Positions 5,308-7,517 of a DNA stretch of 7,865 nt are shown here, piece by piece. The stretch's first letter is position 1, and each line of letters starts with the position of its first letter. Position numbers and translations under genes: made by a program. The notes under the pieces were generated by a model that did not search any database, had not been told where the DNA came from, and saw only the letters and a list, made by a program, of their open reading frames with translations. Origin of the DNA: a virus (taxonomy: Duplodnaviria > Heunggongvirae > Uroviricota > Caudoviricetes); the IMG/VR virus record IMGVR_UViG_2690316115_000018, one strand, 5' to 3'.

Positions 5308-5468
5308 GCGGATGGTGCAGGCCTGAAATCATGATACTAACAATGAAGGTAAAATGCATCGGCAGTCTGATTGGTCGTAGTGAGGCGGCGGTCAGGATGA
5401 AAGCCCAGGTTAAGGGAATAAGCCTGATTCTGCGGGGTGATTTTCACCAGTCAACAAAATATCCGTAG
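5304..5468 (+). CDS. small ORF (54 aa) with ATGA start/stop overlap to upstream gene
   Basis: ATG 5304-5306 overlaps TGA 5305-5307 of the preceding gene; no recognisable domain; may instead be the first fragment of the frameshifted remnant that follows. Confidence 0.3.
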
Positions 5469-5915
5469 CGCGATAACGGTCAAAAATTATGGCGCTGACA
5501 CTTTTGTGCCACTGGAGATGACTGTACCTAAGTTCAGGGGAGAAGAACACGTCCGGTGGGATGGTCGGGCCAGATTTAAAGGGCAGGTCATGGCTCCAGC
5601 CTGTACGCTGGCAATGGAGGCTGCCTGGCGGGAAATTGATATGGGAACCACGCCACTCAGGGATTTACTGCCGGTCCAGAGAATAAATTCCTGTTACGGT
5701 TACACCACTGTGATCTTGCAAGTGCAGGAAAGTAGGTCTACACGGTAACGCGAGTGCGTGTAACTTTTGATGTCATTCCCGTAGAAACACCGGACAAATT
5801 TTCGCTGACAGGTCATGCAGAAGGTATAAATCTGCAGATTATGGACAATTACGGATATCCGGCAAGAGCCGGAAAAAGCATGCCGCCTCTAATTCTCAGT
5901 GGAAGATGGACTTGA
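5437..5915 (+). pseudogene. possible frameshifted gene remnant (open frames 5437-5748 and 5736-5915)
   Basis: GC-normal region whose open reading switches frame twice (frame of 5304, then frame of 5437, then frame of 5769); no good RBS for the 103-aa ORF (GTG start); no family recognised. Confidence 0.25.
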
Positions 5916-5974
5916 TTATACTCATTGCATTGTCAGAAATAGTTATCCATTAAAGGCTGGCTATTCCAAACAGG

Positions 5975-6002
5975 ATGTTGATTACAAAAATGTAATCAAC
6001 AT
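5975..6002. promoter_or_regulatory. 28-bp palindrome ATGTTGATTACA-aaaa-TGTAATCAACAT upstream of the binding-protein gene
   Basis: perfect 12-bp arms read directly; AT-rich region 165 bp upstream of the ATG; a TATAAT hexamer lies at 6029-6034. Confidence 0.4.
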
Positions 6003-6166
6003 GTAAGGTTTATACTCTTCAATATGCGTATAATTTTCCTTATTTTGTTGACTTTAAATAACAAGCTATGCACGAGGTAAAGTCGGATAAGTTTATCTGG
6101 ATGTAATATATATTATTTGTAGTGTTTATAACTTTATTTCATGATAACCAATAAAAGGAGTTTTTT

Positions 6167-6925
6167 ATGAGGAGCATAATGGCAGGTTTTTTAATATTCC
6201 TGTCTTCTGCTGCTTATGCTGATATCAATCTGTATGGTCCTGGTGGCCCGCATACAGCCTTGCTTGATGCAGCCAAACTTTATGCCGAAAAAACAGGTAT
6301 TATAGTGAACGTTCATTACGGCCCACAGAACAAATGGAATGAAGATGCCAAAAAAAATGCAGATATCTTGTTTGGCGCATCAGAACAATCTGCTCTGGCT
6401 ATCATTCGGGACCATAAAGACAGCTTCAGTGAAAAAGATATTCAGCCTCTTTATCTGCGAAAAAGTATTTTACTGGTAAAGAAAGGTAATCCTAAAAATA
6501 TCCGGAGTATTGACGACCTGACCAGACCTGGGATTGGCGTAATTGTTAATGATGGTGGTGGTACCAGTAATACATCAGGCACTGGCGTCTGGGAAGATAT
6601 TGCCGGACGTAAAGGGAATATAGAAACTGTCGCCGCAATCCGAAAAAATATTATTTTATATGCGCCCAATAGCGGAACTGCACGTAAGGCTCTTGAGAAT
6701 CAGCCTGGAGCAGATGTCTGGATAACCTGGGCTGACTGGGCAGCCAGTAATCCAGAAATTGGTGATGTCGTGGAAATAGCGCCAGACTACGTGATATGGC
6801 GTGATATGAACATTACAGTACGTCAGGATGCAAATGATGAAACCCGTCGATTTGCAGAATGGCTACAAACCGATGAAGCGGCGCCTGCATTCAAAAAATA
6901 TGGCTGGACCAGGAAAGGCACTTGA
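6167..6925 (+). CDS. secreted orphan periplasmic solute-binding protein, ModA-like (PBP type 2) fold; prophage moron
   Basis: 252 aa; AAGGAG 6 nt upstream of ATG; Sec signal peptide MRSIMAGFLIFLSSAAYA with AYA-D cleavage motif, no lipobox Cys; C-terminal FAEWLQTDEAAPAFKKYGWTRKG parallels my recollection of ModA (FYDYLKGPQAAEIFKRYGFTIK); low-GC gene with AT-rich upstream region; no permease or ATPase genes nearby. Confidence 0.75.
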   Translation: MRSIMAGFLIFLSSAAYADINLYGPGGPHTALLDAAKLYAEKTGIIVNVHYGPQNKWNEDAKKNADILFGASEQSALAIIRDHKDSFSEKDIQPLYLRKSILLVKKGNPKNIRSIDDLTRPGIGVIVNDGGGTSNTSGTGVWEDIAGRKGNIETVAAIRKNIILYAPNSGTARKALENQPGADVWITWADWAASNPEIGDVVEIAPDYVIWRDMNITVRQDANDETRRFAEWLQTDEAAPAFKKYGWTRKGT

Positions 6926-6928
6926 CAT

Positions 6929-6957
6929 CCTCGTCCTTCAGGACGTGGATTCTTTTT
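6929..6957 (+). terminator. putative rho-independent terminator after the binding-protein gene
   Basis: hairpin CCTCGTCC-ttca-GGACGTGG (one mismatch) followed by ATTCTTTTT, 4 nt after the TGA stop. Confidence 0.45.
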
Positions 6958-7044
6958 CCGGATGCCGCGCCAGCGGCATGTAGGGGCAGCTCACAAAACG
7001 GAAAAAATTGTACGCTAAGCCTCGCCAGGTGAACTGAATTCATT

Positions 7045-7068
7045 CCGATATGGGAATTCCCATATCGG
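7045..7068. promoter_or_regulatory. perfect 24-bp palindrome CCGATATGGGAATTCCCATATCGG upstream of the hok promoter
   Basis: reverse complement identical to itself; ends 12 bp upstream of the putative hok -35; function unknown. Confidence 0.4.
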
Positions 7069-7079
7069 GCGAAAACGGT

Positions 7080-7107
7080 TTGCTGTAACGGCAGAGTTAA
7101 GTAGGAT
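7080..7107 (+). promoter_or_regulatory. putative hok mRNA promoter (-35 TTGCTG, 16-nt spacer, -10 TAGGAT)
   Basis: hexamers read from sequence; places the transcript start at about 7111-7116, where the sequence GGTGCTTGAGGCTATCTGCCTC resembles the 5' end of plasmid R1 hok mRNA as I recall it. Confidence 0.45.
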
Positions 7108-7110
7108 TGC

Positions 7111-7260
7111 TGCGGGTGCTTGAGGCTATCTGCCTCGGGCATGAACACCAACGGCAGATAGATAAAAGCCCCACCCGACTATAAATCGAAGTGAGGCCCC
7201 TATATGCTCGTCACATATAGATTGCCTCTTACGGACCGAAAGGTCAAGGAGAAGCAGGCT
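7111..7260 (+). promoter_or_regulatory. hok mRNA 5' leader with tac-like hairpin and 5'/3' fold-back element
   Basis: hairpin GAGGC-tatct-GCCTC (7122-7136); alternative pairing CTATCTGCC (7125-7133) with GGCAGATAG (7155-7163); 5' end TGCGGGTGCTTGAG (7111-7124) is complementary to 3' CTCAACGCACCCGCA (7467-7481). Confidence 0.5.
7155..7215 (-). ncRNA. putative Sok-like antisense RNA (approximate bounds)
   Basis: by analogy to the sokC/mokC arrangement; minus-strand -35 TTGACC (rc of plus 7242-7247) overlaps the hok SD region, but the -10 at 17-nt spacing (CAATCT) is weak, and no clear terminator was found; existence not demonstrated. Confidence 0.3.
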
Positions 7261-7416
7261 ATGAAGCAGCAAAAGGCGATGTTAATCGCCCTGATCGTCA
7301 TCTGTTTAACCGTCATAGTGACGGCACTGGTAACGAGGAAAGACCTCTGCGAGGTACGAATCCGAACCGGCCAGACGGAGGTCGCTGTCTTCACAGCTTA
7401 CGAACCTGAGGAGTAA
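7204..7416 (+). CDS. Mok-like reading frame (in-frame N-terminal extension of Hok, 70 aa)
   Basis: ATG 7204 in frame with hok; extension MLVTYRLPLTDRKVKEKQA resembles my recollection of K-12 MokC (MLNTCRVPLTDRKVKEKRA). Confidence 0.5.
   Translation: MLVTYRLPLTDRKVKEKQAMKQQKAMLIALIVICLTVIVTALVTRKDLCEVRIRTGQTEVAVFTAYEPEE
7261..7416 (+). CDS. hokD: Hok-family type I toxin, HokD(RelF)-like, 51 aa membrane peptide
   Basis: MKQQKAMLIALIVICLTVIVTALVTRKDLCEVRIRTGQTEVAVFTAYEPEE matches my recollection of E. coli HokD and is close to HokC/Gef; AAGGAG 9 nt upstream; single transmembrane helix. Confidence 0.9.
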   Translation: MKQQKAMLIALIVICLTVIVTALVTRKDLCEVRIRTGQTEVAVFTAYEPEE

Positions 7417-7485
7417 GAGACCAGGCGGGGGAGAAATCCCTCGCCACCTCTGATGTGTCAGGCATCCTCAACGCACCCGCACTTA

Positions 7486-7517
7486 ACCCGCTTCGGCGGG
7501 TTTTTGTTTTTATTTTC
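7486..7517 (+). terminator. rho-independent terminator of hok mRNA
   Basis: hairpin ACCCGC-ttcg-GCGGGT followed by TTTTTGTTTTTATTTT. Confidence 0.75.

Follow-up and report, generated by a model that had tools for sequence, protein, structure and literature searches.

The perfect 24 bp palindrome between the paa adhesin gene and the hok promoter of this EHEC prophage is an element of neither neighbour and marks a mosaic joint. The stretch that contains it (7029–7068) is probably the last scrap of a lost KilA-N/BstA-like gene. This degree of confidence applies to the explanation as a whole, in which the palindrome (7045–7068) is part of a gene remnant, derives from an element selected at the level of DNA that is likely to be a cognate protein-binding site, and is itself probably a fossil. 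In intact KilA-N genes the corresponding dyad is conserved as DNA, not as peptide.

The window, which is the whole 7,865 nt stretch of DNA that was analysed, is the early-right and nin region of a lambdoid EHEC prophage of the PPompW type. It is 100% identical to the chromosomes of O157:H7 and related strains and to deposited PPompW/Stx2a phage records. The annotation of the identical locus has, in order, cI-like and Cro-like regulators, replication genes, DUF1627, a fimbrial pseudogene, paa, hokD, DUF968, rusA and Q. The features surrounding the palindrome are these:

6167–6925, + strand: paa (AcfC-family adhesin Paa), the neighbouring moron, outside the element; RefSeq annotation of the identical locus
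6932–6945, + strand: terminator-like hairpin and T-run directly after paa; terminator scan
6994–7028, no strand: joint of about 35 nt from the paa module to the KilA-N remnant; alignment ends on either side
7029–7068, − strand: probable remnant of a KilA-N-domain (BstA-like) gene, about 40 nt, reading ..DMGIPISE(stop)IQ, with the Leu codon TTA changed to the stop codon TGA
7045–7068, no strand: 24 bp perfect palindrome CCGATATGGGAATTCCCATATCGG, of which the 20 nt core GATATGGGAATTCCCATATC is the canonical dyad element of KilA-N genes
7080–7107, + strand: putative hok promoter, with −35 TTGCTG (7080–7085) and −10 TAGGAT (7102–7107); from the sequence and the leader-model start
7114–7263, + strand: hok mRNA leader and sok region; Rfam RF01794, 103.9 bits, E = 2e-23
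7261–7416, + strand: hok (hokD-type) toxin CDS; the overlapping mok frame starts at 7204
7485–7502, + strand: intrinsic terminator of the hok transcript; terminator scan

The hok transcript is placed as starting near 7114, with the −10 and −35 sequences listed, because the match to the sok/hok-leader model begins there.

A remnant of a KilA-N gene

The sequence at 7045–7068 is its own reverse complement, with two 12 nt arms that are 100% complementary and have no spacer between them. As single-stranded DNA it has a folding energy of −11 kcal/mol (z = −3.3). Perfect palindromes of 24 bp are expected by chance in the window about 5e-4 times (arithmetic, 7865 × 4^-12), and in 200 dinucleotide-preserving shuffles no copy turned up at up to 3 mismatches, which rules out a chance palindrome. 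The original prediction was therefore right that the sequence is perfectly self-complementary and unlikely to have arisen by chance. The 12 bp that it gave as the distance to the putative hok −35 also agrees with the 11–12 bp measured from the right edge of the palindrome, the centre of which is near −57. There is a single copy of the sequence within the window, even with up to 3 mismatches allowed, and E. coli genomes have it in 1–6 places, those inspected being upstream of hok or within KilA-N genes. A dispersed repeat, such as a REP, MITE or IS end, is ruled out by these copy numbers.

On the minus strand, 7029–7068 matches the codons DMGIPISE(L)IQ of a KilA-N-domain gene. The 18 nt beside the palindrome are identical to E. 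coli-type KilA-N genes at 12/18 positions (P(≥12) = 2.5e-4), and against 26 KilA-N genes the same 18 nt are identical at a mean of 10/18, compared to a null of 4.5 from random positions. Similarity of the other palindrome flank to KilA-N genes is not significant, therefore the homology is significant on one flank only. In E. coli AR_0015, 23 of the 24 bases of the palindrome sequence are found within an intact 257-codon gene just upstream of hok. This CDS, encoded by the minus strand, is flanked by the DUF1627/DUF977 genes and by hok, with 529 nt separating it from the hok leader, and its translation at the palindrome is ..ELSRDMGIPISELIQSFKGG..QGTWVHP. The protein matches Pfam KilA-N (PF04383) at residues 14–112 (E = 4e-27) and, in its C-terminal half, the PADLOC BstA model at residues 119–238 (E = 3e-21), and it has 32% identity to BTP1 BstA (BLASTP, E = 3e-16). 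Thus the homology extends beyond the palindrome, and an intact homologue exists at the same position and in the same orientation, as for a fragment of a KilA-N gene. This probable origin in a KilA-N gene was missed when the palindrome was read as a hok-associated feature.

Other prophages carry remnants of different lengths. A longer remnant, DMGIPISRLTQSVKA, abuts an ORF6N gene in one type of prophage (L073) and is 18/27 identical to the gene of L003 by hand count, and a 26 bp version of the palindrome is found in others. In the hok-adjacent remnants the KilA-N homology ends exactly at one edge of the palindrome. An intact gene of the AR_0015 type is present in only 137 of 5426 E. coli genomes. 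The E. coli nin-region KilA-N protein (L003 1933–2706, compared with L489 712–1635) has a true Pfam KilA-N domain and a BstA-type C-terminal domain, unlike BTP1 BstA, which has a divergent KilA-N-like N-terminus. The E. coli protein looks like a domain-swapped BstA variant that adjoins hok instead of the repressor gene.

The limits of the modules are indicated by where alignments end. Plasmid-borne paa homologues stop aligning at query position 193–194, which is window position ~6993, and in the hok prophage UC4315, which lacks paa, homology to the window begins at ~7029. The region is therefore a mosaic of a paa module to ~6993, a 35 nt joint, the segment 7029–7068 and a hok module from ~7069. 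An ancestor prophage would have had a minus-strand KilA-N-domain gene just upstream of hok, as some E. coli prophages still do. Its product would have had a KilA-N DNA-binding domain at the N-terminus and, at the C-terminus, a domain of the BstA abortive-infection family. Module replacements would then have stripped this gene, leaving approximately 40 nt (7029–7068). The surviving piece would hold the most conserved DNA feature of the gene family, a 20–24 bp dyad at codons ~60–67 of the KilA-N domain. That the palindrome in the window is still perfect is proposed to be because the loss of the gene was recent.

The dyad within KilA-N genes

At least 120 viral contigs contain the 20-mer GATATGGGNATTCCCATATC, in which N is A or G only, and its flanks there are of many unrelated kinds. 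A codon-degenerate scan for M-G-I-P-I .. Q-G-T-W gave 39 unique sequences from AT-rich and GC-rich genomes alike, in which the Pro codon is CCC in 39/39 and the second Ile codon is ATA in 39/39. A second sample was anchored on the downstream motif [LFI]A[RQK]W[LCI]S[PAT]xF[AHR] and was therefore blind to the palindrome region. It contained the pairings ATG..CCC, ATC/GTC..CCG and CTT..CCA, as well as wholly different and yet perfect stems. Compensatory changes that alter the protein are seen in six peptide and stem pairs from this downstream-anchored sample:

DIGIPIS: GATATCGGAATTCCGATATC
DVGIPTS: GATGTCGGAATTCCGACATC
ETGYPVS: GAAACGGGATATCCCGTTTC
GSLGIPRD: GTCCCTTGGAATTCCAAGGGAC
SSLKIKDE: CATCCTTAAAAATTAAGGATG
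AVVHIRTT: CGTCGTGC-ATATTC-GCACGACG

Distant homologues have their own stems at the same place, these being CGATATCG..CGATATCG in cyanophage PaV-LD and CCTCG-GATT-CGAGG in orf11 of Pseudomonas phage D3. The palindrome is also present in KilA-N genes without the BstA domain, including D3 orf11 and cyanophage and Bacteroidota genes. The loops of the KilA-N stems are 3 to 6 nt long.

The folding of 62 representatives with less than 80% amino-acid identity was profiled in 36 nt windows. Mean energies of −10 to −11 kcal/mol were reached only at the alignment position of the palindrome, compared to −4 to −8 kcal/mol elsewhere. When synonymous codons were resampled, codon choice was found to stabilise the hairpin in 32 of the 62 representatives (p ≤ 0.05), versus 5 of 62 in each of three control regions. 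Across 32 representatives and 11 stem pairs, 75.4% of cells are paired, whereas only 34–46% are paired with the partners slid by 1–3 columns. The covariation score is 0.417, versus 0.136 for shuffled alignments (0/500 reach the observed value) and ≤0.141 for slid ones, and all 11 stem pairs show changes on both sides. Amino-acid conservation alone is ruled out by the codon counts, the synonymous resampling and the independence of reading frame described below.

An RNA helix formed from one strand would tolerate G.U pairs. Among the non-Watson-Crick cells there are 15 G.T and 19 A.C, with G.T being no commoner than A.C or other mismatches. The symmetry therefore indicates double-stranded DNA, or hairpins on both strands, and a sense-strand RNA helix is unsupported.

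The element is not confined to one group of bacteria or to one reading frame. In a survey with one genome per species, the exact 20-mer was found in 115 stretches from species of about ten phyla, with approximately 4 expected by chance (arithmetic). The taxa include Cyanobacteria, Bacteroidota, Bacillota, Chloroflexota, Verrucomicrobiota, Patescibacteria, Spirochaetota and Alpha-, Beta- and Gammaproteobacteria. Among intact KilA-N ORFs, its translation is DMGIPIS in frame 0 (46 cases), RYG(N/D)SHI in frame +2 (7) and PIWEFPY in frame +1 (1). The shifted-frame Saprospiraceae proteins are true KilA-N proteins (E ~ 1e-19), yet their domain shares only 32% identity with the E. coli-type domain. 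An identical 20-mer across phyla and reading frames points to sequence-specific recognition in the main subfamily.

Several individual loci deserve description. In Saprospiraceae and relatives (L502 3341–3360, L529 3989–4008, L568 1378–1397) the 20-mer is at the homologous KilA-N position and is read as ERYGNSHIA. At three loci (L526, L542 from Patescibacteria, and L554) it is the centre of a 42 bp perfect palindrome (CATACTCCCGG..CCGGGAGTATG), which in L554 is flanked by A-runs and T-runs in the manner of a bidirectional terminator. The 20-mer also occurs upstream of, or in an N-terminal extension of, an intein-containing terminase large-subunit ORF and in the linker of a Prim-Pol protein in GC-rich phage contigs (L036 3544–3563 and L109 7327–7346, listed together for both). 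In Okeania (L495 6304–6450, L513) it is 19 nt upstream of an ORF that resembles a KilA-N N-terminus (..DGMWNAS..), in a locus that looks rearranged or truncated. An operator upstream of the KilA-N start was considered for Okeania and dropped, the downstream ORF having only 36 codons.

It is proposed that in intact genes the symmetry would be selected in the DNA itself, rather than via the protein or as a one-strand RNA helix. The palindrome is, in the most likely mechanism proposed, the cognate site of the KilA-N domain, serving as an auto-operator or self-mark. The protein would bind this site within its own gene, and the site would act as a portable auto-operator or self-recognition element. 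Against this proposal, a hairpin or cruciform independent of sequence accounts for the wholly different stems of the subfamilies about as well as does a protein site that co-evolves. In addition, the only further copy within ~7 kb of 37 KilA-N loci is a relic upstream of hok in L007, setting aside two 3-mismatch matches taken as chance, and a regulator with extra target sites near its own gene was rejected on this count.

The nearest parallel is the anti-BstA element aba, a short DNA element in the bstA locus that switches BstA off on its own prophage (Owen et al. 2021, PMC8585504). It works as DNA, not as RNA or peptide, and each BstA variant has its own cognate element; the interaction between aba and BstA was left unresolved (PMC8585504). 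In BTP1 it is 63 bp long, consisting of 29 bp upstream of bstA and the first 34 bp of the gene, and its function needs terminal CCCGCC direct repeats (PMC8585504). The KilA-N dyad resembles aba in being a DNA-level element, specific to the variant or subfamily, within the gene of a prophage protein that has an N-terminal KilA-N or KilA-N-like domain. In addition, the gene from which the palindrome in the window derives encodes a C-terminal domain of BstA type. The elements differ, however, in that the palindrome is 20–24 bp and lies ~180 nt into the ORF within the KilA-N domain, rather than at the 5' end, and in that it also occurs in KilA-N genes without the BstA domain. No CCCGCC direct repeats flank 7045–7068. 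The sequence of BTP1 bstA was checked for the same palindrome and it is not there, nor is there any palindrome in BTP1 aba. These differences in length, position, repeats and symmetry make the analogy to aba an indirect one.

Other systems place sites within genes. Clerget and Boccard reportedly described, in 1996, that Roi, a DNA-binding protein of the HK022 nin region, binds a site within its own gene. The likeness, which is by analogy only, is that of an accessory gene of a lambdoid nin region encoding a DNA-binding protein with a site in its own coding sequence. Roi (L467 1656–2381) is a 241 aa ORF, judged by eye to have a Rha-type N-terminus and a KilA-C/ANT-type C-terminus and not a KilA-N domain; the palindrome was not seen in its sequence. 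The iterons of the lambda ori lie inside gene O, so that the replication origin is embedded in the gene for the initiator. As in the KilA-N genes, a cis-acting, dyad-symmetric protein site is carried in the coding sequence of that protein, and a site carried within the gene of its reader stays linked to the reader through module exchange. The KilA-N dyad differs in being a single site and not an iteron array, and nothing ties KilA-N genes to replication initiation. Rickettsia palindromic elements are inserted in frame in genes, with palindromic DNA being translated as part of the protein. The KilA-N dyad shares with these and with REP and MITE sequences the translation of palindromic DNA within a protein, but it is not dispersed, being at one homologous position in one gene family, is only 20–24 bp, and is kept by covariation and not by insertion.

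Stand-alone copies and alternative explanations

Copies of the palindrome outside KilA-N genes drift. Upstream of hok, such orphan copies have a 1 nt arm deletion (L005, L258), four substitutions (L224) or central changes (L002, L045, L058). An anchored scan downstream of a probable DNA-methylase gene, identified from its C-terminal peptide as read by eye, found copies with 1–2 uncompensated stem changes and some relatives without the site. Orphan copies gather uncompensated changes at about the rate of their flanks. Because orphan copies drift in this way, the copy in the window is most likely a fossil, and it is probably neutral, young and for that reason still perfect. In the proposed explanation its partner gene would be gone and the site would not be needed by hok.

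Stand-alone copies are also very common in the non-coding DNA of many phyla, in many unrelated contexts. There are arrays of two to five different 20–22 bp palindromes with a GGAATTCC-type core, for example GAAACGGGAATTCCCGTTTC, GATATGGGAATTCCCATATC and GTTGCAGGAATTCCCGCAAC, each of which resembles the site of a different KilA-N subfamily. One such array, in an Alcaligenaceae MAG (L521 2530–2705), has five palindromes with this core within 180 bp, upstream of an 806 aa ORF that has no Pfam hit. Smaller arrays are found in L579 (4456–4497), L507 (6915–6966), L493 (2934–3087), L593 (1936–1997) and L107 (13857–13910). The arrays and the abundance of stand-alone copies suggest that copies without a gene can be functional, perhaps as decoys. 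They therefore weigh against the reading as a fossil, and the copy in the window may not be neutral. It is possible, if on balance doubtful, that KilA-N domains in general carry a co-evolving cognate operator in their own coding sequence, that this serves as a BstA-like mark of self and non-self, and that the orphans and arrays are gene-less immunity decoys.

For the window itself, a functional orphan decoy would be a stand-alone palindrome that titrates or switches off the KilA-N/BstA-like protein of a competing prophage, letting this prophage replicate. BstA is neutralised by a short cognate DNA element of its own locus, as DNA and also in trans (PMC8585504), and the source gene of the palindrome has the BstA-type domain. 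The intergenic arrays of several different palindromes of this type fit the same idea. Palindrome-bearing DNA is 7× more widely spread in E. coli than the intact gene (980 versus 137 genomes), which means that most hosts of this prophage are without an evident partner protein. Hitch-hiking with paa and hok in EHEC prophages that are nearly identical can account for this wide distribution, however, and the uncompensated drift of orphan copies and the different sequence, structure and position of the mapped aba also argue against a decoy. Such a function is rather unlikely for the copy in the window.

The main alternative to a cognate site for the element in KilA-N genes is a sequence-independent DNA hairpin or cruciform, in which the arms are selected only to pair. 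It could serve as a signal in replication or recombination, as a target recognised by its structure, or as a hot spot at which mosaic junctions form, with the copy in the window marking such a junction. Unrelated stem sequences occupying the same position, strictly Watson-Crick pairing without strand asymmetry and the varying loop length are all as such a structure would have them, and so is the sharp end of the KilA-N homology at the palindrome edge in the hok-adjacent remnants. That junction may be a single ancestral event, however, and retention of the exact 20-mer across phyla and reading frames favours sequence-specific recognition in the main subfamily. This alternative is considered quite improbable.

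Relation to hok and paa

The palindrome is absent from the 933W hokW locus and from most hok/sok loci, in which homology to the window starts at ~7072, right after it. A scan anchored on the hok leader found that the hok module begins at (G)ATAAAAACGGTTTGC and is usually preceded by a small ORF ending in ..CRWG and a stop codon, not by the palindrome. The promoter stretch (7080–7107) is kept in hok loci without it. DNA like hok is present in 4721 of 5426 complete E. coli genomes, with the whole 661 nt query matched in only 573, and the palindrome region is present in 980. Depending on the prophage, 48, 66 or 529 nt separate the palindrome from the hok leader. In the window the palindrome ends at 7068, which is upstream of the putative −35 and outside the Rfam sok/hok-leader match. 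An integral hok element is therefore ruled out. Compared to the cis elements of hok/sok (promoters, tac/ucb/fbi, Sok target), the palindrome is only a physical neighbour of a hokD-type locus, being outside the hok transcript and the Rfam model and absent from most hok loci.

The location of the palindrome close upstream of the −35 would suit a dimeric host or phage regulator that binds at about −57 and activates or represses hok. With the same promoter and leader found without a palindrome in most loci, and with such variable spacing, this is very improbable. The suggestion of a dimeric regulator site remains plausible to the extent that the palindrome derives from a dyad-symmetric DNA site, but its tie to hok fails, and so does any hok-specific role, since otherwise similar hok loci do not have the palindrome. 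Likewise, the suggested boundary site of the hok cassette is correct as to location, exactly at the left boundary of the hok module, but this is not a feature of hok, as seen from 933W. The palindrome and 16 nt on its left are present in prophages without paa, such as UC4315, and the shared paa module stops near 6993. For these reasons the palindrome cannot be where the paa module ends.

An RNA hairpin that insulates hok from paa read-through, as had been suggested, or that stabilises the 3' end of the paa transcript, is practically negligible as an explanation: a 10 bp stem is possible in RNA and the terminator-like hairpin of paa is weak, but the flanks (GGGCGAAAAC on the + strand, GGAATGAATTC on the − strand) have no T-run after the stem on either strand, the parent gene family tolerates G.U no more than A.C, and the palindrome predates paa at this position. 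An intrinsic terminator is ruled out by the lack of a T-run and because 7045–7068 is not among the calls of the terminator scan of the window. No Rfam 15 covariance model matched the palindrome, whether in the window, within KilA-N genes or at orphan loci.

Further features of the region were seen in the course of the comparison. In UC4315 (L002 2860–3050), ~140 nt that are extra relative to 933W, comprising a 34-codon hydrophobic ORF and the palindrome, lie between two copies of GGGTAAAAACG, which looks like insertion or recombination at short repeats. Between paa and the fimbrial pseudogene, at 5975–6002 of the window, there is a second perfect inverted repeat, ATGTTGATTACA-N4-TGTAATCAACAT. 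Fragments of a fimbrial subunit gene directly upstream of paa (5437–6006), annotated in RefSeq as a frameshifted pseudogene at the identical locus, may mean that paa came in along with a piece of a fimbrial operon. The putative hok −10 is TAGGAT in the window and TAGAAT in most other hok loci, and may make the hok promoter slightly weaker. At 7425–7506, where the hok transcript has its 3' end and terminator, there is a weak isrK-like Rfam match, which at 24.9 bits falls short of the gathering score and is probably only a shared terminator shape.

Literature searches with the palindrome sequence, and for KilA-N together with palindrome or inverted repeat, found no description of the element. 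The dyad in KilA-N genes therefore appears to be unusual and undescribed as far as the literature was searched, while the local feature in the window is ordinary, a gene remnant. For the prophage this means that neither hok nor the paa virulence moron has a hidden regulator in the palindrome, which is a remnant that marks a mosaic joint. For the wider family, a short sequence in the gene for a very common phage DNA-binding domain is conserved as DNA, with compensatory changes that alter the protein and with re-use in other frames. This makes it a concrete candidate for what phage KilA-N domains bind and for how BstA-type prophage defence proteins recognise their own phage. If orphan copies do function as decoys, they would amount to an anti-defence device consisting of DNA only, invisible to protein-based annotation, and stand-alone copies would let phages escape KilA-N-based abortive infection.
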